A DNA stretch of 64,000 nucleotides, taken from NCBI GenBank assembly GCA_963736115.1, contig CAVTNR010000027.1, positions 128,098-192,097 on the forward strand, written 5' to 3'. The position numbers and the translations under genes are program-made. This document shows, piece after piece, positions 167-34,375 of the stretch. The notes under the pieces were generated by a model. The model ran no database searches. It worked only from the letters and a program-made list of their open reading frames with translations, and had not been told where the DNA came from. Positions within the stretch are counted from its first letter, which is position 1; the number at the start of each line of letters is the position of its first letter. The DNA comes from an uncultured bacterium (GTDB lineage: Bacteria; Zhuqueibacterota; QNDG01; DTFT01).

Positions 167-1105
167 GTGACCCAGATGTACCCTTTCTACCCCGTCAAGC
201 GTTTCGTGACACCGGCCCCGATTCCCTTTATCGCCGCCGCAGAAGCGCTCCCGGACAATCAGCGCATTCTTGTTTTTCTGCCGCACTCGGACGACGGCCG
301 GTATTTCGGCGGATCGCTTCATCTGCTCAACCGTCGGAACGCAGTCCGCATCGTGGTCATGTCGCCCGGGTTTCTCGGCGTGGACCAGGATCTGCCGATC
401 GAGAAAAAAACCCGGCTGCGATGGGAAGAAGCCGTTTCCTGGGCGCGGGTGCTGGGATTCAAGCCCGAACAGCTGGTTGATTTCAGGGCTGATCAGACCT
501 ATACCTCCCAGTCCGTCGATGCGGGTGAGATGGAACGCCTGCGGTCCTTCATCGCGGAACAATCGCCCACCATGGCATTCATTCCGAATCTCAGCGATAC
601 CGCCCAGGCCGTCAATTACAACACGCGCGCCATGGTCATCGCTTCCCTACTCTCCTTTATCGAGGAGCGGCACCGTCGCGAGCCCTCCGCTTTATCGCCA
701 TTCCTGCTGGTCGAATACCCTACCAACCATGTGCCCATTCTGCCCCCTTCGGACCGGAACTTCGTCATTTTTTTCAACGATCCGGTTCTCTCCCGGCTGA
801 GACGCGAAGCGAACCTGGAGCACCGCAGTCAAAGCACCTCCTGCTTCGACATCACGGAGTCGCTGGTCGAGGCGGTTCACGCCATCTCCGAGGCCGATAC
901 CATCCATTACCTGCAGAAACGGCAGACCTGCGCGGAGGGTCTGAGGAGCATCACGGTCGATCCGCGAACGTCGCGGGGCGAGCATTTCGGCGTGACCAAG
1001 CTCGACGTGAAAGGCGATCCGCCTGCCATTGTCGAGCTCCGTCTGGAATTTCCGCTTTCCGAAACGGACCGGCAGGTCTGGAACCGGGAGGTGGCGGGGG
1101 TTTGA
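167..1105 (+). CDS. PIG-L/LmbE family deacetylase-like protein
   Basis: ORF 62..1105 with ILVFLPHSDD (PHxDD motif) and LRWEEA..ARVLG. GTG at 167 follows a GGAGG SD at 156-160. The second HxDH motif appears absent. Confidence 0.7.
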   Translation: MTQMYPFYPVKRFVTPAPIPFIAAAEALPDNQRILVFLPHSDDGRYFGGSLHLLNRRNAVRIVVMSPGFLGVDQDLPIEKKTRLRWEEAVSWARVLGFKPEQLVDFRADQTYTSQSVDAGEMERLRSFIAEQSPTMAFIPNLSDTAQAVNYNTRAMVIASLLSFIEERHRREPSALSPFLLVEYPTNHVPILPPSDRNFVIFFNDPVLSRLRREANLEHRSQSTSCFDITESLVEAVHAISEADTIHYLQKRQTCAEGLRSITVDPRTSRGEHFGVTKLDVKGDPPAIVELRLEFPLSETDRQVWNREVAGV

Positions 1106-1108
1106 AGA

Positions 1109-1319
1109 AGTTCATAGTTCATAGTTCATGGTAAATAGTTTTGGCCCCCCATAACAAAAGACCTGAAAGGTCTACCGGACCTTTCAGGTCTTTTTGATAA
1201 CCCATCACGGGATTGTCCACCCCACCCTGGATCCCCGATAGAACAGCTCGGGGATGACCCCCAGCCCTTATCCCGAAACACTCATTTTTCTATGAACCAT
1301 GAACTATCAACTATGAACT
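1109..1319. repeat. Inverted heptamer arrays (AGTTCAT)n...(ATGAACT)n enclosing two palindromes
   Basis: AGTTCAT x3 at 1109-1129; complementary array at 1290-1319. Internal hairpins AAAAGACCTGAAAGGTC..GACCTTTCAGGTCTTTT (~1156-1195) and ATCCCCGA..TCGGGGAT (~1231-1255). Confidence 0.85.
1156..1195. terminator. Bidirectional terminator-like / REP-like hairpin between convergent genes
   Basis: Long inverted repeat with A- and T-tracts between the stops at 1105 and 1321. Confidence 0.6.
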
Positions 1320-1320
1320 T

Positions 1321-2343
1321 TTAAAAAGTCATCCCGATCGAGAACTTCTGGATCTCCTTCAGCACCCCGAAATCCGCCCACGCGTAGTCCAGCATCAGGG
1401 ACGATGTTCCGAACATCCTGTATTGCACGCCCCCGCCGAACGTCAGACCCTCCTCGCTGTCCTTCGCGAACAGGCTCTTGTATCCCGCGCGCAGAGCCAC
1501 CATCCGGTGAAACACGTACTCCGCGCCCACGTTCACGCTCTCCACGTCGTCGTTCGGATGAAGCGCGTCCACCGCCAGCGTCAGATTGCTGTCGTACAGA
1601 CCCTTCAGAACGTCCACGCTCATCCCCACACGGAACAAAAGCGGCATGTCCCACTTGTCCGTCTGAAGATTCGCGTTGATGTTCGGGTTGTTCCCAGACA
1701 CCGTCGCGTCGATGTCCTTCTGTACCAGCGCGTCCTGGCCGCCCATCTGCATCTTCGTCCCGTAATTCGATATGCTCATCCCCAGACGAAGACCCTCCAG
1801 CTGGGTGTCGAACAGCGTCCCCACGTCGAACGCCATGCCGCGCGCGTTCATGTGGAAGATCTTCTCCTGAACGTATTTCGCGTTGAACCCGATCGAAAAC
1901 CGGTCCGTCAGATTACGGGCGTAACTCAGCGCGAACGCGTAGCTCCCCGCCGAAAACGTCTCGCCCGTCCCCTCCGGCTCCATCGTCGTCGTCCGGTCCA
2001 TGTCCCCCATCGTCAGGAACTGAGCGCTCACGCCCAGAACCCCCACGCCACCCACCGGAACCGCAACCGCCGCGTGGTTGTACGCGATGTCCGCGATCCA
2101 CTGCGTGTTGCTGAACGACGCCTGGCCGCCCTTCATCCGGGCGATCCCAGCCGGATTCCAGTACACCCCGCTGATGTCGTCCACCACCGACACGAACGCG
2201 CTGCCCATGCCCACGCCCCGCGCGCCCTGGTCGATGTTCAAAAACGCCGCGGACGTCGTCCCCGCCTTCGTCACCTCCCGGCCGTATGCCGGGAAGGACA
2301 CCAGAAGCGCCAATCCCACAAGTATCAGCTTTTTCATCTTCAT
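1321..2343 (-). CDS. PorV/PorQ family (UPF0164-like) outer-membrane beta-barrel, cassette A
   Basis: Signal peptide, then FLNIDQGARGVGMGSAFV..DD.SGVYWNPAG (PorV/FadL-like N-terminal signature); C-terminal aromatic F. Confidence 0.88.
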   Translation of the reverse strand: MKMKKLILVGLALLVSFPAYGREVTKAGTTSAAFLNIDQGARGVGMGSAFVSVVDDISGVYWNPAGIARMKGGQASFSNTQWIADIAYNHAAVAVPVGGVGVLGVSAQFLTMGDMDRTTTMEPEGTGETFSAGSYAFALSYARNLTDRFSIGFNAKYVQEKIFHMNARGMAFDVGTLFDTQLEGLRLGMSISNYGTKMQMGGQDALVQKDIDATVSGNNPNINANLQTDKWDMPLLFRVGMSVDVLKGLYDSNLTLAVDALHPNDDVESVNVGAEYVFHRMVALRAGYKSLFAKDSEEGLTFGGGVQYRMFGTSSLMLDYAWADFGVLKEIQKFSIGMTF

Positions 2344-2383
2344 GTCTCCTTGATATCGTCTATCGGAGCCCGATTCCCTGGTC

Positions 2384-2498
2384 AGTTCATGGTTCAGAGT
2401 TCATAGCTCATAGTTAAAAAAGATTTCTTGTCGCTTCATCTTTTCCGTTGTTCACGATTCTCTTTCAACCATGAACTATGAACCATGAACTATGAACT
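2384..2498. repeat. Heptamer-array hairpin between cargo gene and PorV gene (copy A)
   Basis: AGTTCAT-type units x4 at 2384-2415 and ATGAACT-type units x4 at 2467-2498. Confidence 0.85.
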
Positions 2499-2499
2499 C

Positions 2500-5400
2500 T
2501 TATTTGACGATCGCGAACTTCCCGACCTTTTGCCCGATGTCCCCGGCGTCGACGTGATAGATGTACACGCCGTAGGCGACATCCAGGTTGTCCTTGGACC
2601 GCACATCCCAGATTTCGGTGCCGTTGGAGGCGGCCGGAGTGTTGTGCTCGAGCGTCTGAATGAGCTGGCCGCGCACGTTGAAGATCTTGATCGTGCACAC
2701 GGCCGGAAGGTGGGTGAAGTGAATCTCACGAGGCCCGCGTCCGTCGGCGTAAGGATTCAGGGCTTCAAAGGAATTGGCCACGATGTACGGATTGGGCACG
2801 ACTTTGATGAGGTCCAGCTGGGTCTCCGCTATCAGGTTGCTGACATCTTCTCCCTGAACGGTGAACTCGAACACGTCCTGGCTGCGGAACGGCTTGAGCA
2901 GGCGGACGCGCATGGTGTCCCCCGCCGCCGGATTGGCGAGCGAGTCGTTCACCATTCGCACGAGCCAGCTCGACAGCAGCACCGAACCCGTGTCCGGCGC
3001 GACGATGGTGATTTCGTCGGCCTGCGCCCGCACCGTAAACGCGGAGAAGACGCCGTCGTTGCCGTCATTTTCGATGAATCCGAACGGCATCCGCTCCCGG
3101 GTGACGGGGTCCTGAACCGTGAAATTGACCGGGACTGCGGGCATGAGACGGCCCCTGCGCATGAACGCGTCTGAGGTGTCGACTCCTGCGGGTCCGATGA
3201 CGATGTCAAAATCCCGCGACAGCGGAATTTCCTTCTCCTCCCGGTACGCGTACGGCAGGCAGGTGAAGCTGTTGAGGCCGACTCGGCTCCAGCCGCTGGT
3301 CAGCGTGTCCATCTCCAGATACCGCTCGTTCTGGAGCGTGAGTTCGAAACCGTCGTACGGGGGGAACTTGATCGTCTGCTCGGTCCAGGGAATCTTATCG
3401 ACGATCACACGCCCCTCGGTCTGGTCGACAAGACTGACGTTCTTGGTGAAGATCGTGTCCGCGAAGCTCCGGACCACCTTGAGCGTCTCTTCAAAGGCGA
3501 TGCGGTACACGTGATTCGGCTTCACCACGGCCGGATCGAGTATCGAGAGGTTCACCCGGCCGCTGGTCGTACCTCCCGGCAGAAGCGCAACTCCCGGTGA
3601 AGAAGCCGGCAGGTATCCGGCGGACGGCGCTTCGGGCCGGACCACAACCACGTTTTTGCCTTTCTCGTCCACGGTCCCGTCCGCGGCCATGGAGATGAAT
3701 TTCGAACACTCAGAAGGCGGAATGGACATGCCCTCGCCGCGGTCATAGGATGTGACCGCATAGTAGTACGTGTAGCCGTTCTTGGCTGTGTTGTCGACGA
3801 AGGAATGCTCGATGCCCGTGTCGTCGCCGAGATAGAACTGCACGCCCCGGAGTCCGACCGGCGAGTAGCCGGTGATGCCGTTGGCCAGATCGAACTGGAC
3901 CAGCGGCTTGCGGTAGGTGACGGATCCCGAACCGTCGGTGATGGGCGTCATGTCGTTCCAGCCCGGATCCGTGGAACGGTAAATCCGATACCCCTCGAAG
4001 TCGAATCCGCTGATCGGATCGTAGCTCTTCTCCGCAATGTCGTTCCAGTACAGCGTGACCTGTCCGTTCCCAGGAACCGCGTTCAGAGTGGGGATGATCG
4101 GCGCCTTGGCGAAATTGTAGTTTTCGTCATAGGCCCGCGCCATGTAACGCTTGTTGGTGACCAGTTCGTCCAGTCCGAAGCCCAGCACAAGCCCCATGGA
4201 GAACCGCTGAATGAACCCGGGCTGCATCGGGAAATATCCGGCGCCCCAGAACAGTTCGGTATTAGCCCGCGTCATGGTCTCCGTGAGTTGGCCCGGCCGG
4301 ACCTTGGCCCAGACGGCTTCGTCGTCAGACTGGGCGAAACTCGTCCAGGCGTACATGTTGAAGCTCGTCAGGCCGATCATGTCGGTTTCGGAGATGTCCG
4401 TCTTGTCGAAATGGGGCTCGCCGAGCGTCGGCTGTCCGTCCCGTTCTCCAGGATCTCCGGTGTCAGCAGCGCCGTCGCGCTCCGGTGTCGTCGAGCAGGG
4501 CGTTCCAGTCCCCGTCATTGTCCAGGCTGTCGTCGCGGCGTTCGTCGATGAGCTTGTTGTCCAAACCCGCGCCGGTGAGGTAATTGATGTACTTGAGCCC
4601 CGTGTTGATATACCGGGAAACCGATCCCACGGTCGTCCCGTTGTTCTCGTCGATGATGCCGTTGAGGTTGTCATCAACCAGATTATTCGGCACTTCCACG
4701 AGCGAACTGCCGGCCGCGAAATTAAAAGTCTGGTCGATGTAACGGACCGTGACGCCTTCCGCCGGCATGGTGGTCATAGTACGCGCGTATGTGGTGTAAT
4801 CGATCAGTACGATCGGATCGCCTGCATTGACGGTCTGGGGATTGAACGTCGCCTCGGTGATGACGGGGCCAGGACCGTTTATGCCGTCTCCGTCATTGTC
4901 GATGCCGTCCACCGCATTGCCCGGACTTTCCAGGAACGCGCCGCCGATCCACCCAACCGGCGTCCATCCGCCGGCGCCGATATTGTCGTCATCCCACAGG
5001 TAGGCCATGTCCTCTTCGAGACTGTAGGCGCCGTCGTCATCGTCGCCTTCGCCGCCGTACACGGTGTTGGTCTCGCCGACGTTGTTTCCGATCTTGTAGC
5101 CGAATGCCATTTTATTGTGATACGTGGTGCCGATGTTTTCGATATCGTACAGGATGTAGATGCAGTCCTCGACCAGGGCGTTCGACCACTGAAAGCTCCG
5201 CACCCACATGCGCATGCCGAGACCCTTGCGACTGAAGTCGGTGGTGTCCGGAAAGAAGTTGAATTCCTTGTTCTGGTAGTCGTCCGACACGAAGTAGGCC
5301 TCTTCATCCGCGTTGAACTGGTCCTTCCCGAAATATCCGTTCCAGGATCCCGCCCACCCCGGATCTATGGCGTCGTCGGACTTGTCCGGCCACGCGGCCG

Positions 5401-5887
5401 GCCACGAATACGGCCACTTACTCATGGCGATCGAATTGGTCTCATCATTGGAATTGAAAAATCCTGGGAGCGGCATGAACGTCCACCACGTTCCTGTGGC
5501 GAGGTCCGCGTCGCCGGCGGAATAATTGCCGGACGATGCGGGATTGTTCGGATTGCCCGCGCTGGTCACCGTGCTGCTGATGTGACGCAGTATCCCGTCG
5601 CCGTCGACGACTTCAGAGCACACGAAAACGTTCGCGTCGAGCAGATACGGATGACCGGAATTGATGGGCCATTCGCCGCCGATGCCGCCCTGTCCCTTCG
5701 GGTTGGCGGCGTTGCACCCGTAGGTGCCGTCATTGAAGAAGGTGAGGCGGATCTGGTTACCCGCATGGAGTCCCTTCTTCATGTTGGCGAAATCGCCGTG
5801 CATCGATTTCATCTGGGACTGGGCCAGAAGCGCCGGAGCCAGCCCCAGAAGGGTGAAACACACCAGACCTTTGATTATCCGTTTCAT
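2500..5887 (-). CDS. Large secreted acidic protein with FN3-like domain and T9SS-like C-terminal sorting domain, cassette A (one +1 frameshift at ~4480)
   Basis: ORFs 4463..5887 and 2500..4677 join at DDTG|RDGAA and are colinear with paralog B. Signal peptide; DGIDNDGDG motifs; VTLYWN..FEGYRIYRS..YYYAVTSYD; C-terminus PNPY..GVY..KFAIVK. Confidence 0.8.
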
Positions 5888-5906
5888 ATATTGGCTCCTT
5901 GACGCG

Positions 5907-8879
5907 TTAAAAACCCACCGACAGGCCGATTTGAATCTGGCGAGGAGACGTGTACCAGCTCGGCTGTTTGGCCCATTCCTGCACGGTCCCGATCCGATTG
6001 GCGTCGTATCCGGCCATTTCCGGATCGCGGGTCGAGGTCTCGTCGGCTTTCTGCGTGTCCGAGTAGACGTTGGTCACGTCATGGATGTCGAACACGTTGT
6101 AGACATTCATGAAAAGATTGAAATTCAGTCCGGCCATCCGGATGCCGCGGTCAATGGTGAGGTCCACGTTCCGCTGGATCGGCTTACGCTGACTGTTCTG
6201 CTGGAGTCCGCTGTAGGAGCCGGAGCCCATGGCCTCGCCCGAACGGAAGGTCGGGGTGTACGGCGTGCCGCTCCAGATGTTCCCGATCATCGAGAACATC
6301 CAGCTTGACAGCCTGTAGCGGACAACGGCGTTCAGCGTGTGGGGCTGATCGAAGCCCATGGGGATCAGGGCCAGACGCTGTTCCTGATTGTTGTTGTAGG
6401 CGGTGTACGCGTCCGCGGGGCTGGTGTAGGTGCCCTCGGCCTTCTGGTAGGTGTAGTCGACGCGGGCCGCAAAATTGCGGGTCATGCGCTTCTCGAACTT
6501 GACGGTGAAGCCGCGGACGTTCTCGTAGTCCTTGTTCGTGTACTGCATGTACTTCACCGCTGGATTGTAGGTGTCGATCATGGCCGTGGTGCCCACCCAG
6601 TCCCGGACGTCCCGGTAGAACACGGACACGTCGAGACCGATGTCCTCCGTCACCTGCTGCTGCAGGCCGATTTCATACTGGGTGGTGCGCTGCGGTTTGA
6701 GATTGGCGTTGCCCAGCACATAGGTGCCGCCGCTCTGGCTCATCTTGAAATCCGGACGGTCGAACAGGTACTGGAAGTCCGGCGTCTGGAAGAAATGGCC
6801 GTATGAGAAATGGATGGCGCCCCGGTCCGTGATCGGGAACGACAGGCCGAAACGCGGGCTGAGGGCCCAGGTGGCGGACGACTTTTTCTGCATGAACGAA
6901 CGCCTCTGTTCCACGGTCCACTCCACGCGCTCCGCCGCGGGGGCGTCGGGATTCACGTAGATGTTGGACGGCTTGAGCGGCGTATACACACTCGGATCGG
7001 ACGGATCGGCCACGACCACGCTGTTGGCGTCGAAATAATCCATGCGGAGGCCGACGTTCACGATCAGGTCCTTCAGCTCGATTTTATCCTGGAGATAGCT
7101 GGAGAACTCACGCGGCTTTCGGTTGTAGATGGACCGCTGGATACTGGAAACGTCCGGCACGACCGGCTGAAACGGAACCAGGGCGGTGGTGCCGCCCGCG
7201 TCCGTTTTCGCCATCAGCGTGTAGGAGTCCAGTGTCAGTTCATGGGTCCGCGCCTCGAATCCGAACTTCATCTGGTGGATTTGGTTGAGCTGGCTGGTCA
7301 GATCCAACTTGGCGACCCAGTAGCCCGTACTGCGGTTGTAACGGTTGAGCTCGTTTCCGCCGTTATTGAAGCTGTAGCTGGCGGGCGCGGAATTCGAGTC
7401 GGAAGACACATACCCTTCAGGACCGTCCACGATGGGGAGATAATAATAGGTGCGACGGTCGGTGATGACCTGGGTCAGCTGATTCTGGCCTTCGGCCGTG
7501 GTGGGGTCGATTTCGAATCCGGGCAGTCCGTTTGCGGCGTCCTCCATCACGCGGACGATATATTGAGGCGCGGCCAGGGGATTTGTGTAAAGGTGCTGCT
7601 CGTATTCATTGTAGAACCGGTTGATCCGGAATTCATAAAACGTCTTCTGGGACAGCACGTGGTTCATTTCGAAGATCTGGGTGAGGCCGTTTCCGCCCTG
7701 CCCGGGAATGCCGTCCGGCGCGTAGGTGTAGGCCTGGTTGTAGTTGCGGTCCTGGTTCCAGTTGTTCCAGAACGCGTTGTATTTCAGCGTGATGTGACTG
7801 CTCAGCCTGTACGCCAGCTTGCCCTGCAGGGTCTGACGCTCGTAGGGGCTGAGCGGAACGAACGCGCTGTCGCCGGGCGTGCCATAGGGCGTGAACCAGC
7901 GCCGGCCGTAGAGGTAACCCTCGTTCGAGACGAAACGGCCGTTGGCGAAGAAGGTCAACCGACTGCCAAGGAAGGGCACCGGACCGCCGAGGTTGAACTC
8001 GAGATTGTAGTCGGGATTGAATTCCTTCAGCGGGTTTTCCAGTTCGCCGGTGTGCATCTGCACCCCGGTGACCGGATGGGTCCCCACACCCGTGCGCTTG
8101 AGCAGGCTGAACTTCTGGCTCGAAGTGACGTAGTCGCCGACATACCCGTTGATGCTCCCGGACATCCGGTTCCCACCGTCCTTGGTGATGATTTTCACGA
8201 TGCCCGACATGGCCTGGCCATACTCGGCGTTGAACGTGCCGCTGAGTACCTGTAGCTCCTGGATCGAGTTGTTTTCGACCGTCACGCCGCTGGAGCCGTT
8301 GAACACATCGGTCGTGGCCACGCCGTCCACCCAGTAGGCGATTTCGCTGGAGCGTCCGCCGCGGATGTGCAGGCTGTTGCCCTGACGGGTCACGCCGGCC
8401 TGAAGCTGCAGCACATCCTCCACGCTCGACACAGGCAGGTCGGCGATTTCATCCGCGCCCACCGAAGAGAGCGAAGAGGTCATGTCCTTCCGAAAAAGGG
8501 GCCTTTCCGCCACGATGGTGACGCCTTCGTCCGATTCGAGAACCATCGGCTGGAGGTTGGTGTTGAGATCCGTGGTGAAATCGATGGAGACCCGGATCTT
8601 CTCAATCACGGTTCTTTTATACCCCATCATGGTCATCCGTACGGAGTAAATGCCCGGCGGAAGGGCAATGATGGCGTACTCGCCGTTCTCGTCCGTGATC
8701 GCGCCGAAACTGGTGCCTTCTACCAGGACGTTGACGCCCATGAGCGCCGCGCGGGTTTGGGAATCCTTCACCGCTCCCGCGATCTTGCCGGTGGTTCCGG
8801 CGATCAGCGGCAGGGCGAGGATCACGGGGAGAACGAATACCCCGAACAGACGCGCGAGAAAACGATCGGCTTTTTTCAT
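5907..8879 (-). CDS. TonB-dependent receptor with N-terminal carboxypeptidase-regulatory-like domain, cassette A
   Basis: GTTGKIAG.VKD N-domain; plug IRGGRSSEIAYWVDG..GTFNAEYG; SPRFG, LKPQRTTQYEIG; terminal PRQIQIGLSVGF. Confidence 0.92.
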   Translation of the reverse strand: MKKADRFLARLFGVFVLPVILALPLIAGTTGKIAGAVKDSQTRAALMGVNVLVEGTSFGAITDENGEYAIIALPPGIYSVRMTMMGYKRTVIEKIRVSIDFTTDLNTNLQPMVLESDEGVTIVAERPLFRKDMTSSLSSVGADEIADLPVSSVEDVLQLQAGVTRQGNSLHIRGGRSSEIAYWVDGVATTDVFNGSSGVTVENNSIQELQVLSGTFNAEYGQAMSGIVKIITKDGGNRMSGSINGYVGDYVTSSQKFSLLKRTGVGTHPVTGVQMHTGELENPLKEFNPDYNLEFNLGGPVPFLGSRLTFFANGRFVSNEGYLYGRRWFTPYGTPGDSAFVPLSPYERQTLQGKLAYRLSSHITLKYNAFWNNWNQDRNYNQAYTYAPDGIPGQGGNGLTQIFEMNHVLSQKTFYEFRINRFYNEYEQHLYTNPLAAPQYIVRVMEDAANGLPGFEIDPTTAEGQNQLTQVITDRRTYYYLPIVDGPEGYVSSDSNSAPASYSFNNGGNELNRYNRSTGYWVAKLDLTSQLNQIHQMKFGFEARTHELTLDSYTLMAKTDAGGTTALVPFQPVVPDVSSIQRSIYNRKPREFSSYLQDKIELKDLIVNVGLRMDYFDANSVVVADPSDPSVYTPLKPSNIYVNPDAPAAERVEWTVEQRRSFMQKKSSATWALSPRFGLSFPITDRGAIHFSYGHFFQTPDFQYLFDRPDFKMSQSGGTYVLGNANLKPQRTTQYEIGLQQQVTEDIGLDVSVFYRDVRDWVGTTAMIDTYNPAVKYMQYTNKDYENVRGFTVKFEKRMTRNFAARVDYTYQKAEGTYTSPADAYTAYNNNQEQRLALIPMGFDQPHTLNAVVRYRLSSWMFSMIGNIWSGTPYTPTFRSGEAMGSGSYSGLQQNSQRKPIQRNVDLTIDRGIRMAGLNFNLFMNVYNVFDIHDVTNVYSDTQKADETSTRDPEMAGYDANRIGTVQEWAKQPSWYTSPRQIQIGLSVGF

Positions 8880-9141
8880 GTCGGTTCGCTCCGGTTGATG
8901 ATGAATGTTTGGAATAATGTCGAGCGGGAGATGGAATAGACGGTGTGGGATAGCCGAAGGGGACGAATATCAGCGGCTCCTGTACTGGCGGGAGCCTGAT
9001 GGACGGTATTTGGACATTGTATTTGAGACATACCGGAACCCGAGTCTTGAGAATGGATCAGGGGAATCCGGAAAAGTGTCGTCCCTTCCTATCGACAGGC
9101 TCAAAACCGGTCTCTGAGCCGTTTTTCTCGGATGTCTGATA

Positions 9142-9170
9142 ATTATACAAAACCTCACTTAAAAAGTCAA
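9142..9170 (-). promoter_or_regulatory. Sigma70-type promoter of cassette A
   Basis: Minus strand TTGACT (9170-9165), 17-nt spacer, TATAAT (9147-9142). Confidence 0.7.
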
Positions 9171-9392
9171 GTAAATTACTGTCATTTCGGGATTACTACG
9201 TTTTCCCAGCCTTCATAATTCTCAGGAGAAAACGGTCAAAGTCAATCAAAAATTGACATATATTCAAATATTAAGTGGAATATTACCTTTCATCATTCAT
9301 TGTAGTTGCCTGATCCACAATAACCATTGTATAAAATCATCGGATGTTTCGTAACAAGGTTTCGCTGGTTTCCGTCTTATAGTGCGGTTTTT

Positions 9393-9552
9393 AATCGGGC
9401 GGCCAGAAGCCTGGTCATTCCGGTTTCAGTTTTTCTGGATGATTGAAAATGGAGCTCCTGGCCGCTCCGACGGGTCGAATTCCCCGATGCTTGCGGCGTC
9501 CATCATCCAAGTTTCCTGTGATACCCCGCTGCTTTCGGCGGGGTCCTTCATT
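9393..9552 (+). mobile_element. 160-bp palindromic mini-element (IS200/IS605-end-like MITE/PATE), copy 1
   Basis: Aligns over its full length with the reverse complement of 17787-17946; carries a GCGGCCAGAAGC..GCTCCTGGCCGC hairpin plus CCCCGC..GCGGGG hairpins. Confidence 0.65.
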
Positions 9553-9617
9553 TGGTGAGGTCCTTCAGGAGCCAGGCATGTTGGCTTGCCTCAGGACGAC
9601 TCCTTTAAAATTTACTA

Positions 9618-9656
9618 AACGATAAAGCGCCGGCATACACCGGCGCTTTATCGTTT
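9618..9656 (-). terminator. Hairpin terminator downstream of cassette B PorV gene
   Basis: AAACGATAAAGCGCCGG-loop-CCGGCGCTTTATCGTTT perfect inverted repeat. Confidence 0.7.
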
Positions 9657-9761
9657 CCTATCGTTCTGCTCAGCGGGATTCCGTTTCCCAGTCCGCCTCA
9701 GCCATGATTATTCTGCATCTCAGCGGAACTCGATAACCCGGAACCCTGCACCCGGAACGTC

Positions 9762-10779
9762 TCAGAAGGTCATCCCGATCGAGAACTTCTGGATCTCCTT
9801 CAGCACCCCGAAATCCGCCCACGCGTAGTCCAGCATCAGGGACGATGTTCCGAACATCCTGTATTGCACGCCCCCGCCGAACGTCAGACCCTCCTCGCTG
9901 TCCTTCGCGAACAGGCTCTTGTATCCCGCGCGCAGAGCCACCATCCGGTGAAACACGTACTCCGCGCCCACGTTCACGCTCTCCACGTCGTCGTTCGGAT
10001 GAAGCGCGTCCACCGCCAGCGTCAGATTGCTGTCGTACAGACCCTTCAGAACGTCCACGCTCATCCCCACACGGAACAAAAGCGGCATGTCCCACTTGTC
10101 CGTCTGAAGATTCGCGTTGATGTTCGGGTTGTTCCCAGACACCGTCGCGTCGATGTCCTTCTGAACCAGCGCGTCCTGGCCGCCCATCTGCATCTTCGTT
10201 CCGTAATTCGATATGCTCATCCCCAGACGAAGTCCCTCCAGCTGGGTGTCGAACAGCGTCCCCACGTCGAACGCCATGCCCCGCGCGTTCATGTGAAAGA
10301 TCTTCTCCTGAACGTACTTCGCGTTGAACCCGATCGAAAACCGGTCCGTCAGATTCCGGGCGTAGCTCAGCGCGAACGCGTAGCTCCCGGCCGAAAACGT
10401 CTCCCCGGTCCCCTCCGGCTCCATCGTCGTCGTCCGGTCCATGTCCCCCATCGTCAGGAACTGAGCGCTCACGCCCAGAACCCCCACGCCACCCACCGGA
10501 ACCGCTACCGCCGCGTGGTTGTACGCGATGTCCGCGATCCACTGCGTGTTGCTGAACGACGCCTGGCCGCCCTTCATCCGGGCGATCCCAGCCGGATTCC
10601 AGTACACCCCGCTGATGTCGTCCACCACCGACACGAACGCGCTCCCCATCCCGACGCCCACGAGCGCCCTGGTCGATGTTCAGAAACGCCGCCGACGTCG
10701 TCCCCGCCTTCGTCACCTCCCGGCCGTATGCCGGGAAGGACAGGAGCAACGCCATCCCCATGATTGCTAGTTTCTTCAT
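9762..10779 (-). CDS. PorV/PorQ family barrel, cassette B (one +1 frameshift at ~10660)
   Basis: N-terminus of ORF 9670..10779 plus ORF 9762..10661; the mature sequence is identical to 1321..2343 after removing one base. Confidence 0.88.
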
Positions 10780-10822
10780 CAGAAGTCTCCTTTATCGATT
10801 GTCGAGCCCGATTCCTCAACAC

Positions 10823-10937
10823 AGTTCATTGTTCATGGTTCATAGTTCATAGTTAAAAAAGGTATTTTGTCGCTTCATGTTTTCCGTTGTTCCCGATCCT
10901 CTTTCAACCATGAACTATGAACCATGAACTATGAACT
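10823..10937. repeat. Heptamer-array hairpin between cargo gene and PorV gene (copy B)
   Basis: AGTTCAT-type x4 at 10823-10854; ATGAACT-type x4 at 10906-10937; homologous to 2384-2498. Confidence 0.85.
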
Positions 10938-10938
10938 T

Positions 10939-13900
10939 TTATTTGACGATCGCGAACTTCCCGACCTTCTGCCCGGCGTCGCCGGCATCGACGTGAAAGA
11001 CGTACACGCCGTAGGCGACGTCAAGGTTGTCCCTGGACCGCATGTCCCAGATCTCGGTGCCGTCCGCGATGGCCGGCGTGTTGTGGTCGATCGTCTGCAC
11101 CAGCTGGCCCCGCACGTTGAAGATCTTGATCGTGCACACCGCAGGCAGGTGGATGAAGTGCAGTTCCCGGGGTCCGCGGCCCGACGTGTAGGGGTTCGGC
11201 GGCTCCCACGCGTTGGAGATGATATACGGATTGGGCACGACCTTCACGTTCTTCAGCTGTTCCTTTGCGGCCGCGGCGTCGATCGTTTCCTTGCGGACCG
11301 TGAACTCCACGACGTCATGCGACAGGAACGGCTTGTCCAGGCGCAGGGTGATGTGGTCGCCCGGCGAGGGATTCGTCAGCGTGCTGTCATAAGTAGTGGC
11401 GTCGAGCTGGAACATGAAACCCACCGCGCCCGTGTCGTTCATCATGATGATCTGGTCCGTCCTCAGCCGCCTCGGATTGGTGAAGGCGCTGAACCGGCCG
11501 TCCGTCCCGTCCTGCTCGATGAACGCGAAATTGATCTCGGTCTTGATCTCGCCCGTGTCCGAGGGGATGATCTTGTAGGCCCTGAAGTTCACGGGCACGG
11601 AGGCGAATGTCGTCGTGCCCCGGATGAATGGGGTCGATTGGCCGACGCTGTCCGCACCGAACTCGATGCGGTAATCCGCGGGCACCGGAACCGTCGTGAT
11701 CCGCGTCCAGCGGTACGGCGCGAACGTGTAGGTGTACAGGCCGGGACGGCTCCAGGCGGAACGCTCCGCATCCAGAATCAGTTCCGCCTCATTGGTGAAC
11801 GCGAACTTGAACCCGTCGATCGTCGGAGACTCGTCCAGATCCGACAAACTCCGGCTCCGATCCACCAGAAGCCGCGGCGCGGACGGATCGGTGACGTCCG
11901 TCAGCGTGAAGCTCTCGGTGATGGGCGCCAGATTCGTGATCGTCCGCATCGTGTCCTCGAACGTGAACCGGTAGGTGTGGCCGTCGAGGATGCTGGTGGG
12001 CTCCACGATGTTGAAACTCACATAACCGGTAGCCGTGCTGCCGGGCATATTCCGCAGGGTCGCGATCTGCGAGGGCAGATACCCGGCCGAGGGCGCCTCG
12101 GGCGTGACGATGACCACGTTGGTGCCCTTCGAAACCTCGCCACCCGTGCTGATGGCGATGAACTTCGGGCACTCCGAGGGCGCGATTCCGCTCTCCGGAT
12201 CGCCGTGGTCGTACGCGGTCACGGCGTAATAGTACTTCTGGCCGTTCTTCACCGTGGTGTCGGTCCAGGTGTGACGGAGTCCGGTGTTCTCGCCGAGGTC
12301 GAAGCAGACGCCCTTCAGGGGCACCGGCGACAGTCCGGAGAACTCGTTGTCAATATCGAACTGCTTGACCGGCCTCCGGTAGGTGGTCGAACCGTAGCTG
12401 TCCGTGATCGGCGTGCAGTCGTTCCACCCCGGATCCGTGGAGCGGTAGATCCGGTATCCCTCGAAATCCTCGCCCAGAATGGGATCGACCGTGTGTTCGG
12501 CCAGGTTGTCCCAATTGAGCGTCACTTTCCGGTTCCCGGCCGTGGCCCAGACCGTCGGAATGGCCGGGAGACTTGGAGAAGTTGTAGTTCTCCTCATAGG
12601 CCTTTGTCACCCAGCCGGTATTGTACACCATTTCGGCCCGGCCTTCGTCCAGGGTGGGACCGTCGGCCAGAACCACGCCCATGGAGAACCGCTGGAAAGT
12701 ACCCGGCTCCATCGGGAAATATCCGGAGCCCCACATGATTTCCGTGTTCTGGCGCTGGAGCCGGTCGTCGAGCATGCCGGGTCTGAGCATGCCCCAGACG
12801 CCTTCGTCGTCGTACTGCGGAATCGAGCTCCATTCATACAGATTGAAGCTGGTGAGCCCGATCATGTCGGTCTCGTGGATGTCGAGCTTGTCGAAACGCG
12901 GCTCTCCGTTCGTGGGCCTGCCGTCCTTTTCGCCGGGATCGTTCGTGGAAGGCGCGCCGTCCTGGCCCGTGTCATCGTCCTTCGCGAGCCAGTCACCGTC
13001 GTTGTCCACCCCGTCATCACGGCGCTCGTCGATCATCCGGTTGTCGCTGCCCTCGCCCGTGATGTAGTTGACATACTTCACGCCCGGATTGGCGTACAGG
13101 TAGCGCACGATCTGGTTGGGTTCCGTGCCGAACACGGACCCGTCGTTCTCGTCGATGATGCCGTTGAGGTTGTCGTCGATGAGGTTCTGCGGGTATTCCG
13201 CCACAACCTTGCCCGGCCAGAACTTGTATTCGATGTTCTGGTAGGCGATCCGGACCGTATCATCCGGCATGGGCATGACGGTCCGCTCGAAAGTCAGGTA
13301 ATCGATCTTCACGATCGTCTCGCCCGCACGGAGCGTGCGTTCGGCGAACATGGCCTCGTCGATCAGGCCGCCCGATCCGTTGATGCCGTCCCCGTCATTG
13401 TCGATGCCGTCATCGGGATTACCCGGGCTTTCGAGGAAAGCGCCGCCGATCAGGGCGACCGGCGTGTAGCCGCCGCCGCCGAGGTTGTCATAATCGTACA
13501 TATAGGCGATGTCCGTGTCGAGCTCGTACGCGCCGCAGTCGTCGGCGCCGTCGCTCTGTCCGGACATGGTGTCGCCCAGGTTGTTCCCGACCTTGAATCC
13601 GAACACCATCTTGTCGTGGTGATGCGAACTGTAGTTTTCGAAGTCGAACAGGATGAACAGCGCGTTCTCGACCAGCGCGTTCGACCACTGCAGGCCGCGG
13701 ACGTACATGCGCAGGCCCAGCCCCTGCCGGCTGCGGTCCGCGGGATCCGGGTAGAACTTCCATTCCTTGTTCTGTGAATCGTCGCCCACATAGTAGCTTT
13801 CCTCGTCGGCGTTGAACTGGTCCTTGCCGAAATACCCGTTCCAGGCCGCGCGGCCCGGAATGCCGTCCACCGCGTCGTTCGCCCATCCCGCGTCGACCGG

Positions 13901-14417
13901 GTCGTCCGACTTGTCCGGCCAGAACGAGGGCCACGACCACTTCCACTTGCTCATGGCGATGCGGGGCGTCCGGCTCATCTCCGCCGGCGGAGCCTCGTTG
14001 TAGAACCCCCGCAGCGGCAGGAACGTCCACCAGTACTGGCCGTCCGGACTGCCGTCGCCCGAAGAGTTCTCGCTCTCCGGCGCGGACGCCGCGCTGCGGA
14101 CCGTGGACGTGATGTGCCGGAGCTGGCCATCCTCGTCGATCACCTCGGAGCCCACGAAGGGGTTGCCGTCGAGCATGTAAATGTGGCCGGAGCCGATCGG
14201 CCATTCGCCGCCGATGTCGCTGGTGCTGTTCCGGTTGTTGCCCCACGTGCCCGTCGTTGTAGAACGTGGTGCGGAACTGGTTGCCGGCGTGCTCCCCGCT
14301 CACGATGATGTTCTGGTCGCCGTAGAGCGTCCCCAACTGGGATTGGCCGGAGAGCCGGCCCGCCGCCAATCCGACCAGGACCGCCGCCCAGACGCCGTAA
14401 ATTCGAATGGATTTCAT
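10939..14417 (-). CDS. Large secreted acidic protein with T9SS-like C-terminal sorting domain, cassette B (+1 frameshifts at ~14250 and ~12567)
   Basis: Three ORF pieces (MKSIRIY.., 12350..14176, 10939..12597) colinear with paralog A; same motifs and KFAIVK end; GAAGGAG SD. Confidence 0.8.
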
Positions 14418-14440
14418 TGCGTTCTCCTTCACGTTTCCGG

Positions 14441-17400
14441 TTAGAATCCGACGGACAGGCCCATCTGAACCTGGCGCGGGGCCGTGTACCAGCCGGGCTG
14501 ACGCACGAATTCGGAGACGGTTCCGACCCGGCCCGCGTCATAGGGCTGGGTGGCGACGGAAACCGTGGTGGTGTAGTCCGCGCTGCCCGTGTCGCTGTAC
14601 ACGGTCAGTTCGTCGCGGATGTCGAACAGGTTATAGACATTGAGGAACCATCCGAGACGAAGACCCGCCGCGCGGAACTGCCGGTTGACGTACAAATCCA
14701 CGTTCTTCTGCGCCGGCTTGTACATGCTGTTCTCGCGGAGCGCGCTGGTCGCCGTGCCGCCGGTCTGCTCCCCGGTCCGGAACGAAGGCGTATAGGGCGT
14801 GCCGGTGTAGTAGCGACCGATCAGGGAGGCCGTCCAGGATCCCGCGCGGAATTCCACGCGGCCGTTGGCCGTGTGACGCTGGTCCCAGGCCATGGGAATC
14901 AGGGAAATGCGGGGTTCGTTCTGGTTGAGCGCCGCGACAAAGGCCTCGTTCGGGCTGGAGAACGTGCCCTCGGCGACCTCGTACATGTAGTCCACAAAGG
15001 CCGCGAAATGGTTCGAGTAGCGCTTGGACAGCTTGAAGGTCAATCCGCGGATGTTGGCGTAGTCCTTGTTCTCCCACTTCGCGTAGAACACCGAGGCCTG
15101 GGAGGTGCTGATCAGGTTGCTCGTCGACACCCAGTCGCGCACGTCCCGGTAGAACACGGTGACGTCGATGCCCACGTCCTGCAGAATCTGCTGCTGCAGC
15201 CCGATCTCGTACTGCGTGGTCCGCTGGGGCTTCAGCGCCGCGTTCCCGAAAATGAGGTCCTGGTTGTTGACGCCCAGGCCGCCGGCCGGCATCTTGAAAT
15301 CCGGGTTGGTGTACAGGTACTGGAATTCCGGAATCTGGAAAAAATGCCCGTACGAAAAGTGGATCACGCCCCGGTCCGTGATCGGGTACGAAACGCCCAG
15401 CCTCGGAGACACGGCCATCCGGGCATCCACCTTCTTCTGCATGAACGCCCGCCGCTCCTCAGGCGTGTACGTCTCAAACTGCGCCTGATAGGCCGTCAGG
15501 TCCGGTCCCGACAGCGGCGTGGAAGGCGGAACGTAGCCCTTGTAGATGTGCTCGGGCTTGAAGGGATAATACACGCTCGGATCCGAGGGATCGGCCGGAA
15601 CCACGCTGTTGGCGTCGAAATAATCGAAGCGGAGCCCCAGGTTCACGATCAGGTCCTTGAGCTCGATCTTGTCCTGACCGTACACCGCGAGCTCCCGCGG
15701 CGAACGGTCGTATTTCTGGCGGTAGATGCTCGACAGGTCCGGAATCGACGGCTCGAACGGAACGATGGTCGTGGTGCCCGAAACCGCCGGCCGGATGGTG
15801 AACTGGTCCAGCAGAAGATTATGATGGCGGTACTCGAATCCCGTCTTGATCTGGTGGACGGATCCCGCCTGGTGCGTCAGATCCATCTTGGCCACCCAGT
15901 ACGATGTCGTCCGGTCCATATTGAACAGCGAATTGCCCGCCCGGTAAAGACTGTACGCGGCCGGCTGCTGGCTCGAATCCGGATGCACGTAGCCGGCCGG
16001 GCCTGCCGGATCCGTATAATAATGAAAACTCCGACGGTCGTTCTGAATCTCGGTCAGCCGGGACTGTCCTTCGGCTGTCGAAGGATCGAACGTTTCGGCC
16101 GGCAGTCCCCGGTTCACATCCTCGTCCACGGCCACCCGGTACTTGCTCTTCGCCAGCGGGTCGTCGTAGACGTGCTGCTCGTAGCGGGTCTTGAAATGGC
16201 TGAGCCTGAGCTCATAGAAAGTCTGCGACGAGAGAATATGGTTCAGGGAAAGAATGTGGGTGCGGGCCTTGCTCGACTGCTGTGGCGTGCCGCCCGGAAC
16301 ATAGGTGTAGAGCTGGTTGTAGAGCCGCTCGTTCTCCGACTGGCTGACGAACAGGTTGTAGCTCAAATTGATGTGCGGCCTGATCTTGTAGGCCACCTTG
16401 CCCTGGAACGAACTCCGCGTGTGGGGATTCAGCGCCACGACCGAACTGTCGCCCGTGTGACCCTGAGGCGTGTAGAACTCGCGGCCGTACAGGTATCCCT
16501 CGTCGGACAGAAAGCGGGCGTTCGTGAAGAACGTCATCCGCTTGTTCGTCAGGGGAACCGGCCCGCTCAGCGTGAACTCTCCGTTGGCCACGGGATTGAA
16601 CTTCCGGAGCGGGTTCTCGTACTTCCCGGCGCCCGTGGTGGCCCCCGAGATCGCGTTCACGGCCGGCGCCCAGCTCTTCAGGATCTTATACGCCGGGTCC
16701 GTGCTGACGTAATCGCCGACATAACCGGAGATCTCGCCCGTGTAGCGGTCGCTGCCCTCCTTGGTGATGTATTTCACGATGCCCGACATGGCCTGACCGT
16801 ATTCGGCGTTGAATGTGCCGCTGACCACCTGCATCTCCTGAATCGAGTTCGTCTCCACCGAAACGCCGTTGTATCCGTTGTACACGTCCGTCGTGGATAC
16901 GCCGTCCACCCAGTACGCCACCTCGCCCCGACGCCCGCCGCGGATGTGGATGTCACCCCCCTGACGGATCACGCCGGCCTGCAGCTGGAGAATGTCCTCA
17001 ACGTTCCGAACCGGAAGGTTCGCGATTTCATCCGCGCCTACCGTCGACAGCGAACCCGTCATGTCCTTCCGGACCAGCGGTTTCTCCGCCACAATGGTCA
17101 CGGTCTCGTCCGATTCGATCACGGTCGAGGCCAGGTCCACGTCCAGAGCGGTCGTGAAATCAACGGACACGCGGATGTTCTCGACCACGGTCCGGCGGTA
17201 ACCCATGAGGGTCAACCGGAGCGCGTAGGAACCCGGTGGAAGGCCGAGAATCTGGTACTCGCCCTTCTCGTCCGTGATGGCGCCGAACGATGTGCCCTGC
17301 ACCAGAACGTTCACGCCGATCAGCGGAGACTTGTTGCCGGCGTCCTTCACCGTGCCGGCGATTTTTCCCGTGTTTCCGGCGAACACTCCCGCCCAGCTGA

Positions 17401-17458
17401 ACAGGGCGAGAAGGAGAAACCAGGCCGGAAGCGCTCTGAAGACGGAGGTTTTTCTCAT
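14441..17458 (-). CDS. TonB-dependent receptor, cassette B
   Basis: Start MRKTSV at 17458 with GGAG SD; GNTGKIAG, IRGGRRGEVAYWVDG, terminal PRQVQMGLSVGF; paralog of 5907..8879. Confidence 0.92.
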   Translation of the reverse strand: MRKTSVFRALPAWFLLLALFSWAGVFAGNTGKIAGTVKDAGNKSPLIGVNVLVQGTSFGAITDEKGEYQILGLPPGSYALRLTLMGYRRTVVENIRVSVDFTTALDVDLASTVIESDETVTIVAEKPLVRKDMTGSLSTVGADEIANLPVRNVEDILQLQAGVIRQGGDIHIRGGRRGEVAYWVDGVSTTDVYNGYNGVSVETNSIQEMQVVSGTFNAEYGQAMSGIVKYITKEGSDRYTGEISGYVGDYVSTDPAYKILKSWAPAVNAISGATTGAGKYENPLRKFNPVANGEFTLSGPVPLTNKRMTFFTNARFLSDEGYLYGREFYTPQGHTGDSSVVALNPHTRSSFQGKVAYKIRPHINLSYNLFVSQSENERLYNQLYTYVPGGTPQQSSKARTHILSLNHILSSQTFYELRLSHFKTRYEQHVYDDPLAKSKYRVAVDEDVNRGLPAETFDPSTAEGQSRLTEIQNDRRSFHYYTDPAGPAGYVHPDSSQQPAAYSLYRAGNSLFNMDRTTSYWVAKMDLTHQAGSVHQIKTGFEYRHHNLLLDQFTIRPAVSGTTTIVPFEPSIPDLSSIYRQKYDRSPRELAVYGQDKIELKDLIVNLGLRFDYFDANSVVPADPSDPSVYYPFKPEHIYKGYVPPSTPLSGPDLTAYQAQFETYTPEERRAFMQKKVDARMAVSPRLGVSYPITDRGVIHFSYGHFFQIPEFQYLYTNPDFKMPAGGLGVNNQDLIFGNAALKPQRTTQYEIGLQQQILQDVGIDVTVFYRDVRDWVSTSNLISTSQASVFYAKWENKDYANIRGLTFKLSKRYSNHFAAFVDYMYEVAEGTFSSPNEAFVAALNQNEPRISLIPMAWDQRHTANGRVEFRAGSWTASLIGRYYTGTPYTPSFRTGEQTGGTATSALRENSMYKPAQKNVDLYVNRQFRAAGLRLGWFLNVYNLFDIRDELTVYSDTGSADYTTTVSVATQPYDAGRVGTVSEFVRQPGWYTAPRQVQMGLSVGF

Positions 17459-17726
17459 AGCCGTCGACTCCAAGTTTGGGGTTTTAAACGTTCTGGAACG
17501 ATCCTGATGTAACTGCTGATTGATTCTCCCCGCCGTCCTGCCGCGCGGGACCCGGGAATGATATTGATGAATGATGGACATCAATCACTACGGATCTCCT
17601 TCCGAACCAGGATATACCCTGAAGCAATATGCGTTATCGTACACGCAAGTCCGTGAAACACTTTGCAGAATAAAACTCGAATGACGACTTAATGTGAACT
17701 TGGGTTAATCCTGGAAATGACCGGTT

Positions 17727-17755
17727 AAAGTAGGTAATTAACTATTTTAAGTCAA
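17727..17755 (-). promoter_or_regulatory. Putative sigma70 promoter of cassette B
   Basis: Minus strand TTGACT, 17-nt spacer, TACTTT in an AT-rich region. Confidence 0.45.
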
Positions 17756-17786
17756 GAGAAAATTATTGATGTTAAGTAAGCATATT

Positions 17787-19725: not shown

Positions 19726-19747
19726 CCGTAAAACCGGAGGCAGGACA

Positions 19748-34365: not shown

Positions 34366-34375
34366 GGAAAACAGG

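Follow-up and report, generated by a model that had tools for sequence, protein, structure and literature searches.

To our knowledge, glycan uptake of the SusC/SusD type is understood almost only in the Bacteroidota. Sister phyla of this group, among them KSB1, Calditrichota, Ignavibacteriota and Marinimicrobia, occur in large numbers in sediments and in the oceans. The present analysis concerns a 64,000-nucleotide stretch of DNA (the window), which forms the final 64 kb of contig C27 of a metagenome-assembled genome (MAG) of 3.34 Mb in 31 contigs, 87% complete. The window contains two tandem cassettes, each consisting of genes for a TonB-dependent receptor (TBDR), a large secreted protein (the middle protein) and a barrel of the PorV/PorQ family. 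We assign a probability of roughly 0.6 to the reading that these are two copies of one module, in which the barrel acts as a private carrier and anchor of the surface protein and the surface protein is the glycan-binding partner of the co-encoded transporter.

It is useful to compare this triad with the closest described systems, several of which belong to the T9SS (type IX secretion system). In the attachment complex of P. gingivalis, PorU and PorZ are anchored via PorV and PorQ (PMC12365241, PMC10202324); that is, a barrel of the PorV/PorQ family holds a T9SS-exported protein by its retained C-terminal domain (CTD). The triad would resemble this complex in retaining the CTD, and it does resemble it in that the tails of the window's middle proteins have their only NCBIfam matches in the C-termini of PorZ and PorU, with PorQ as the next-best model for the barrels. 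However, the cargo of the triad is not a T9SS component; it is a protein of about 1130 amino acid residues (aa) with predicted supersandwich, FN3 and Ig-like domains, encoded between a TBDR and the barrel. The pair also occurs in 12 copies per genome, and its barrels score below the PorQ and PorV equivalog cutoffs. A dedicated, linked carrier for one cargo is known from the PorP/SprF barrels and their type B cargo, such as SprF and SprB of Flavobacterium johnsoniae, and this cargo remains on its cognate carriers (PMC12618676, PMC10994853). In contrast, the triad barrel is of the PorV/PorQ family, the tail of its cargo is type A-like, and the linkage is to a TonB-dependent transporter, not to gliding.

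The general PorV is homologous to the triad barrel, and the interface predicted for the triad recalls the mode of binding in the solved SprA-PorV-substrate structures of F. johnsoniae (8gl6 and others; PMC10994853). The general PorV is the carrier of every type A cargo, which it delivers to the PorU sortase, whereas in the triads each cargo has a barrel gene of its own. A review puts forward the hypothesis that cognate PorV-like barrels protect the CTD from cleavage (PMC10202324). With SusC/SusD (RagA/RagB) and the utilisomes, the triad shares a TBDR with a carboxypeptidase-regulatory-like domain beside a surface protein of predicted carbohydrate-type fold, often together with genes for glycoside hydrolases (GH) or carbohydrate-binding modules (CBM). 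Unlike these systems, the triad is found in a genome without SusD, and its transporter, at 52-62 bits, stays below the SusC/RagA cutoff of 368. Furthermore, its partner protein is neither a lipoprotein nor a helical protein resembling tetratricopeptide repeats, and would be anchored by a third protein.

The gene triad in the window and in related genomes

The features of the two cassettes are listed below. Every gene in the interval 1321..17458 lies on the minus strand.

14441..17458, minus strand: TBDR_A, TonB-dependent receptor, 1005 aa, single open frame (from the open reading frame and Pfam)
10939..14432, minus strand: middle gene A, secreted protein, ~1160 aa when read through, three frames as assembled
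about 12567-14354, minus strand: predicted supersandwich N-domain of middle gene A
10939..11241, minus strand: putative variant type A T9SS CTD of middle protein A (last 100 aa and the stop)
9762..10779, minus strand: barrel A, PorV/PorQ family, one extra base at 10660 (NF033709)
9617..9656, minus strand: terminator-like hairpin with an 18-bp stem, after barrel A
9142..9170, minus strand: sigma-70-like promoter match (11/12) upstream of TBDR_B (consensus match; the promoter type of this lineage may differ)
5907..8879, minus strand: TBDR_B, TonB-dependent receptor, 990 aa, single open frame (from the open reading frame and Pfam)
2500..5887, minus strand: middle gene B, secreted protein, ~1128 aa when read through, two frames as assembled
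about 4107-5809, minus strand: N-terminal domain of middle gene B
2500..2802, minus strand: putative variant type A T9SS CTD of middle protein B (weak matches to PorZ and PorU C-termini, predicted docking)
1321..2343, minus strand: barrel B, PorV/PorQ family, 340 aa, intact (NF033709)

The initial annotation of this DNA, made from the sequence alone, described two co-oriented cassettes with the order TBDR, middle gene and barrel, and this arrangement is found at the positions given there. The receptor sizes of 1005 and 990 aa are also correct, each receptor being encoded in one open frame; the two are 56% identical in amino acid sequence. Other details require some correction. The gap of ~20 nucleotides (nt) between receptor and middle gene holds for cassette B (19 nt), but in cassette A it is 8 nt, or 23 nt with an ATG start. 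The lengths of ~1130-1160 aa assigned to the middle proteins agree with those obtained by reading through, but neither middle gene is a single open frame as assembled. Each cassette had also been given its own promoter and terminator. The hairpin after barrel A and the promoter match upstream of TBDR_B agree with this, but only a weak hairpin follows barrel B, and the promoter scan upstream of TBDR_A gave no match. The numbers of promoter matches (4, with a shuffle mean of 5.7) and terminators (14, with 16.2) in the region are not above those of shuffled sequences.

A tblastn search of the MAG revealed 12 TBDR-middle-barrel triads on eight contigs, of which eight are intact and four (A, B, E and G) have frame breaks. 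Fifteen PorV-family genes in the MAG score above the cutoff, 12 of them inside triads. The receptors, middle proteins and barrels of the 12 copies rank alike by identity, and the three genes of the module are therefore duplicated together.

More than 1177 proteins of similar length are homologous to the middle protein; apart from a single "T9SS type A sorting domain-containing protein" (NCBI), they are unnamed or "hypothetical". The nearest named homologues are found in MAGs of candidate division KSB1 and Calditrichaeota. The gene neighbourhoods were surveyed with one genome per species, covering 80 loci out of 241 candidates encoding a relative, and loci were counted where at least 3.2 kb upstream and at least 1.2 kb downstream were available (51 loci). 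In 48 of the 51, a TBDR gene ends within 700 nt upstream and a PorV-family gene starts within 900 nt downstream, both on the same strand. The other three also hold all three genes, in the order TBDR-barrel-middle in L016 and L059 and with a spacer gene in L021, so that conservation of the triad across genomes extends to 51/51 loci. The loci are labelled Calditrichota, KSB1, Ignavibacteria, Marinimicrobia, Rhodothermales, Balneolaceae, Krumholzibacteriia, Eisenbacteria and Stahlbacteria, and homologue-carrying loci are labelled also Ignavibacterium album, Melioribacter roseus and Caldithrix. The triad is real and widespread in bacteria related to the Bacteroidota. The initial annotation had regarded the module as belonging to a non-Bacteroidota lineage of the FCB (Fibrobacteres-Chlorobi-Bacteroidetes) group; it is not restricted in this way, as loci with the labels Rhodothermales, Balneolaceae and Bacteroidota show.

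A profile of the tail of the middle protein has 1-30 matches per genome in 97 of 101 genomes sampled in the window's phylum (96 of 100 without G087). The N-domain matches 709 representatives in a library of 1.84 billion proteins at E <= 1e-3 and 224 at E <= 1e-30, nearly always at residues about 25-600 of proteins of 1000-1300 aa. Literature searches, which did not reach most subscription journals or supplementary files, found no paper describing the triad. The two loci with the order TBDR-barrel-middle form a subgroup whose tail has ...RLLIIK at its end where the other members have ...KFAxIK. L019, the locus with the label Melioribacter roseus, is a further member, and its tail is cut off. 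The "SusCDE" operon of M. roseus (PMC3534657) was considered as a possible case of the triad, and no link was made; the gene upstream in L019 encodes CBM9 and a CTD, not GH13.

In 47 other loci, the gene that directly follows the barrel was compared. It carries a GH or CBM domain in 22 of them (GH10, GH66, GH94 twice, Glycoamylase six times, and CBM20/CBM48/X25-type domains twelve times) and encodes a sugar-type ATP-binding cassette (ABC) binding protein in two more. The CBM20/48, GH94 and Glycoamylase neighbours would point to alpha- and beta-glucans as possible substrates. In 32 of the 47 this gene ends in a canonical T9SS CTD which reaches the Pfam thresholds. With a variant tail in the middle protein and a canonical CTD downstream, two tail classes therefore coexist in one locus.

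The barrel and the C-terminal tail

The initial annotation had placed a PorV/PorQ barrel in each cassette. The family model NF033709 (PorV/PorQ family, cutoff 90) supports this in both, with 208.4 bits for barrel B and 189.8 bits for the downstream 299-aa frame of barrel A, although the frame of barrel A is broken at 10660. Barrel B remains below the equivalog cutoffs of PorQ (NF033711, 106.6 against 220) and PorV (NF033710, 84 against 250). All 44 triad barrels that were compared match NF033709, with PorQ as the next-best model, and the barrel profile matches F. johnsoniae PorV (6h3i_F) with E 3.8e-25.

The motifs VVPNPY..IFNVRGQL..WD..GVY..GKFAIVK are present at the ends of both middle genes, in agreement with the T9SS-like tail that had been quoted for them. 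The two tails are identical in 79 of 100 residues. The window's middle proteins match NCBIfam models only weakly and only in their last ~70 residues, which resemble the PorZ and PorU C-termini (E about 1e-3). Among 18 members of the family, at E <= 0.1, the PorU C-terminus is matched in 11, TIGR04183 in eight (best 9.4e-4) and PorZ in seven. An alignment of 119 family tails was compared by hhalign with 38 type A tails of the same genome, taken from the 48 matches to the PorU tail (E down to 1.1e-5). The comparison gave a probability of 96.4% and E 1.4e-9 over 77 columns, while the reversed target gave 6.9% and the FN3 region of the family 0.3%. On the evidence of these profiles and controls, the tail is therefore a divergent type A T9SS CTD. 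The fold agrees with this assignment: in the predicted model of paralogue D (another cassette of the MAG), residues 1036-1134 form seven strands (pLDDT about 73-86 apart from loops), giving a predicted 7-stranded beta-sandwich with the conserved C-terminal Lys. The family differs from other type A tails in an insertion, GRGxRxxxF, after the VVPNPY motif, and has a near-invariant end GKFAxIK, in which the terminal K is nearly invariant. The alternative of a type B CTD with a PorP/SprF carrier finds little agreement, as CHU_C matches are weak and the PorP/SprF model TIGR03519 gave nothing above its cutoff in the MAG.

The nucleotide identity of cassettes A and B is distributed unevenly. It is 97.8% in the mature barrel, 88% in the spacer (156-159 nt) and 81.5% in the last 303 nt of the middle gene, while it is 63% over the 600 nt preceding the CTD and 71-75% in the remaining parts. 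Over 298 aa, the barrel proteins of A and B do not differ. The same barrel and tail block of ~1.5 kb is 91% identical to that of cassette G on contig C19, the remainder of which shows 70-77%. Twin cassettes on contig C12 have a block of 94.5% over the barrel and the 3' end of the middle gene, compared with about 72% elsewhere. Judged from these identities, the block of barrel and tail shows the pattern of gene conversion.

The initial annotation expected the CTD to dock on the neighbouring barrel, and such a complex is predicted. Residues 22-340 of barrel B were modelled with the 110-aa CTD B, each supplied as an alignment of 44 rows. The ipSAE score was 0.90 in all three runs, compared with 0.00, 0.00 and 0.03 for the controls. 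The runs share at least 83% of their contacts, and the pLDDT of the partner is at least 79. Of 157 solved complexes 116 reach the mark taken to indicate docking, as do 2 of 215 mismatched pairs, these counts being approximate because custom alignments were supplied. The predicted interface is formed by alternating loop-like segments of the barrel and by the C-terminal strands of the CTD with the final Lys-containing motif. Two outcomes named in the initial annotation as refuting its idea, a triad that is absent from other genomes and a C-terminus that does not model as a CTD on the barrel, were put to the test, and neither occurred.

The surface protein, the transporter and a possible mechanism

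The signal peptides of the middle proteins have, by inspection, no lipobox Cys in the canonical position. The N-domain was modelled by AlphaFold2 (AF2) for residues 27-600 of paralogue D using 106 aligned sequences, with pLDDT 93.4 and pTM 0.92. The model was compared by VIA-align with 48,161 chains. The best match is dextran dextrinase (9ju0, Z 20.2, root-mean-square deviation (rmsd) 3.4 A, 257 residues aligned), followed by cyclic glucan synthase (8rf9, Z 20.1) and the N-domain of glucoamylase (1lf6, Z 19.5). The N-domains of GH94, GH116, GH149, GH65 and GH161 enzymes follow with Z 15-19, and galactose mutarotases with about 13; Foldseek ranks the same families first. With Z 20.2-17, 240-280 residues aligned and rmsd 3.4-4.4 A, the domain is predicted to be a beta-supersandwich of the galactose mutarotase type. 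The match covers about 260 of 574 residues, and about 300 residues are insertions without a match, rich in the invariant Asp/Gly motifs DGIDNDGDG and DNDGDW. These motifs resemble calcium-binding loops. The acidic residues E290, D300, D302, D304, E464, D471, E474 and D476 are invariant in the 106 sequences. No catalytic (alpha/alpha)6 domain follows the N-domain.

The full-length model of paralogue D (AF2, 18-row alignment) is poor, with pLDDT 59.3, and shows FN3 and Ig-like sandwiches in addition to the seven-strand tail. A Foldseek search with it found only generic FN3/Ig strings with TM scores below 0.1. The family profile gave chance-level matches only (E 0.3) against the sequences of the PDB. 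The nearest clusters in the ESM Atlas are unnamed or "hypothetical protein", and Por_Secre_tail clusters appear only at 0.80-0.90.

TBDR_A contains the Pfam domains CarbopepD_reg_2 (33-120), Plug (131-226) and TonB_dep_Rec_b-barrel (484-944), and TBDR_B has the same architecture. The scores of A and B, 43.9 and 44.2 bits for PF07715 (cutoff 23.9) and 109.7 and 105.4 bits for PF00593 (cutoff 27), identify both as TonB-dependent receptors. The SusC/RagA model TIGR04056 gave only 61.9 bits for A and 52.1 bits for B, compared with the cutoff of 368, over model positions 2-213; this partial match corresponds to the N-terminal extension and the plug. As stated in the initial annotation, no SusD/RagB gene is found beside the cassettes. 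The region has no such open reading frame, and PF07980 and PF14322 have 0 matches in the whole 87%-complete MAG, while the B. thetaiotaomicron control was positive. Without a gene for a SusD/RagB lipoprotein next to the transporter, the locus is not a polysaccharide utilisation locus (PUL) of the SusC/SusD type.

The MAG contains parts of a T9SS, namely SprA (151 bits; the initial annotation had proposed a search for it), PorU (840 bits) and about 48 further type A tails. A better-scoring PorV-family gene (298 bits) is located on contig C17, outside the triads.

These data allow us to propose the following mechanism. Gene 1 encodes a TonB-dependent transporter with an N-terminal carboxypeptidase-regulatory-like domain. 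The product of gene 2 would be a Sec-exported surface protein, not a lipoprotein, with a supersandwich of ~570 aa, FN3 and Ig-like domains and a divergent type A CTD. The supersandwich is predicted to be of the type that serves as a carbohydrate-binding or support domain in glycoside hydrolases and phosphorylases, with acidic loops of the DxDxDG type. Gene 3 encodes a barrel of the PorV/PorQ family, which would be private to this cargo. Protein 2 could cross the outer membrane through the T9SS translocon (SprA) and be taken up by its own barrel and not by the general PorV carrier. It may keep its CTD and stay anchored non-covalently on the barrel, in the way described above for PorZ with PorQ, PorU with PorV and type B cargo with PorP/SprF. 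The anchored protein would then bind a glycan and pass it to the neighbouring transporter, the role played in the PULs of Bacteroidota by SusD and the surface glycan-binding protein (SGBP) lipoproteins. Dependence on the T9SS, retention of the CTD, binding of glycan and contact with the transporter are all what we infer, whereas the gene set with its conservation, the barrel's family, the homology of the tail, the N-domain fold and the predicted interface of barrel and CTD are results of the analysis. The putative substrate-capturing lid of the initial annotation is compatible with such anchoring.

A more far-reaching version is possible but doubtful. Here the three gene products would form a stable three-subunit machine, in which the barrel-anchored protein caps or feeds the transporter. 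It would correspond to the SusCD "pedal-bin" but do without a lipoprotein, and would be of FCB origin and the main system of glycan uptake outside the classical Bacteroidota; the homogenised blocks would represent a lock-and-key code between cargo and carrier.

Most genomes sampled from the phylum carry the module, frequently with more than 10 copies, and its middle protein has no family name. In annotation the three genes deserve names, so that the gene flanked by a TBDR and a "PorV/PorQ family protein" is no longer left as a "hypothetical protein". If the proposed anchoring is true, PorV/PorQ barrels would serve beyond T9SS housekeeping as a general means of surface display without a lipid anchor. 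Type A-like tails could be sorted to private carriers, and the triad would provide a testable candidate for the missing SusD function.

Conflicting evidence, alternative readings and neighbouring sequences

Several results weigh against the private-carrier reading. The window's middle proteins have no Pfam match, and TIGR04183 and PF18962 gave no match to them at E <= 0.01. The check with TIGR04183 proposed in the initial annotation thus failed: its curated threshold is not reached in the window copies or in their relatives, and no curated threshold of any T9SS CTD family is reached by the tail. Among the 18 family members, at E <= 1, the type B model CHU_C (PF13585) is matched in eight (best 0.0036) and Por_Secre_tail (PF18962) in only two. 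The identity of CTD A and CTD B (81.5%) may be due partly to plain conservation, since the mean column identity of this domain across phyla is 51%. The docking score may reflect likeness to known structures and not specific binding, because PorV-CTD complexes have already been solved (8gl6 and others; PMC10994853). A shared fold shows no function, and the relatives of the N-domain include catalytic mutarotases, GH174 and PL26. No GH or CBM gene adjoins the window's own cassettes. GldL (TIGR03513) and GldM (TIGR03517, PF12080) have no match in the 87%-complete MAG, nor was any control genome positive, and GldK scores 75 bits against the cutoff of 350, the three control genomes that matched all being under the cutoff too. 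The absence of gldL and gldM weighs little, because the MAG is incomplete and lacks even rpoB (TIGR02013) and rpoC (TIGR02386), neither of which was found in it. Finally, as assembled, three of the six cassette genes are broken, which the initial annotation did not mention.

The frame breaks were located by aligning the intact paralogue D. They lie near 14243 and 12566 in middle gene A and near 4480 in middle gene B; in barrel A, comparison with barrel B places the extra base at 10660. Each of the four consists of one extra base relative to a paralogue or to an orthologue of the same genus. Two genomes of that genus, G030 (with 91% DNA identity to cassette A and 83% to cassette B) and G067, carry the orthologues uninterrupted, in open frames of at least 1173, of 1194 and of 1226 codons. 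The same-genus orthologue L092, with 91% DNA identity to middle gene A, lies in one open frame, and the orthologue L095, with 83% identity to middle gene B, in one of 1194 codons. The ratio of nonsynonymous to synonymous substitution (dN/dS) against the orthologues is 0.09-0.18 for middle gene A and 0.12-0.15 for middle gene B, including the segments downstream of the breaks; for the receptors it is 0.07-0.12. Logan contigs of relatives were compared with the window, the best share of words being 0.20, and site 10660 alone was read directly: the metagenomic contig of a relative (run X2) omits exactly this base. Gap-containing Logan records of relatives span the breaks near 14243 and 12566, and none is listed over 4480.

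Similar damage is found outside the cassettes. The gyrA gene of the window (57154-60010, plus strand) is divided into at least five pieces, each in a different open reading frame, which correspond to positions 1-25, 25-51, 104-211 and 274-363 of Pfam DNA_topoisoIV and to the C-terminal propeller. As an intact second GyrA/ParC-like gene is present on contig C3 (52376-54337), the broken gyrA alone is no proof of assembly error. A second PorU-like gene, on contig C28 (37680-42417), runs through three frames, which match model positions 8-459, 587-738 and 874-1078, and a PorV-family fragment is located just downstream of it. The two are either a divergent PorU-PorV pair with the same indel problem or a pseudogene. 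The single extra bases, the intact orthologues, the low dN/dS, the X2 contig and the shattered gyrA and PorU paralogue lead us to consider the four breaks in the cassettes as most likely assembly errors.

The opposite view would be that both cassettes are pseudogenes in decay, surplus members of a family expanded 12-fold which are being lost. The four breaks fall within 16 kb and affect middle and barrel genes only, leaving both TBDR genes whole, and two further cassettes of the 12 (E and G) are also broken. These points favour decay, and so does the intact GyrA/ParC-like gene on C3. Decay would not readily explain why every break is a single extra base while the same-genus orthologues are intact, nor why dN/dS stays at 0.09-0.18 in segments that would go untranslated. 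The barrel proteins of A and B are identical over 298 aa within a stretch of 97.8% identity, gyrA and the C28 PorU paralogue are fragmented in the same manner, and a relative's contig lacks base 10660. Loss of function in both cassettes is therefore quite improbable in our estimation. An enzymatic role of the middle protein is somewhat less remote than decay, but we still regard it as unlikely. According to this explanation the middle protein would be a secreted or surface enzyme that cleaves glycans, or an epimerase, with the barrel serving only as its export carrier and the transporter importing the products. The supersandwich is catalytic in galactose mutarotases, in a GH174 endo-fucanase (9k1g, Z 14.5) and in a polysaccharide lyase of family PL26 (5xq3, Z 13.5), eight acidic residues are invariant across the 106 sequences, and glycan-degrading neighbour genes are common in the other loci. 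On the other hand, the domains that match best (Z 17-20) lie at the N-terminus of GH15, GH94, GH65 and GH116 enzymes and are not catalytic, and the (alpha/alpha)6 catalytic domain of those enzymes has no counterpart in the middle protein. Most of the invariant acidic residues lie in motifs of the DGIDNDGDG and DNDGDW type, which are similar to calcium-binding loops, and no GH, polysaccharide lyase (PL) or carbohydrate esterase (CE) family was matched in Pfam or NCBIfam.

The barrel could also be a FadL/PorV-like channel or a general T9SS carrier without a specific tie to its neighbour, so that the adjacency of the genes would reflect only co-regulation of outer-membrane genes. The weak Pfam matches of the barrel to Toluene_X (FadL family), which accompany those to PorV, would be consistent with such a role, as would the statement that the type A CTDs studied so far all use a single general PorV (PMC12618676). 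Against this, the CTD protein and the barrel are kept together in all 51 loci across many phyla, and one MAG of 3.3 Mb holds 15 PorV-family genes with 12 of them in triads. The block of barrel and CTD is homogenised between paralogues, and the predicted docking is 0.90 compared with 0.03. We consider an unspecific barrel very improbable.

The cassettes of the window are flanked by genes for a PIG-L-type deacetylase, PdxS/PdxT and a polysaccharide deacetylase. At 32518-39475 the window holds a sugar-use cluster unrelated to the cassettes, with L-fucose isomerase, a sodium:solute symporter, GH5 and GH28. The section 46000-60000 has a G+C content of 0.65-0.69, compared with about 0.59 elsewhere in the window, and many short or partial open reading frames, for example a 219-aa FmdA_AmdA fragment and the broken gyrA; this part of the contig may be foreign or of lower quality. 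Scans for tRNA genes and Rfam families in window positions 1-20000 found nothing.

A dispersed repeat of ~160 nt is located upstream of both TBDR genes (9390-9552 and 17787-17946). BLAST finds 43 matches to it in the MAG, in both orientations and spread over 14 contigs; 24 of these measure 140 nt or more. The repeat occurs also in genomes of the same genus. It folds into long hairpins (-62 to -68 kcal/mol) and looks like an element resembling miniature inverted-repeat transposable elements (MITE) or repetitive extragenic palindromes (REP). A role as a regulatory element specific to the cassettes was considered and rejected, as only 3 of the 43 matches lie less than 1 kb from the start of a cassette. 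A second short repeat is found in the spacer between middle gene A and barrel A (10823-10944), with copies on contigs C22 and C30 of the MAG and in the same-genus genome G030.

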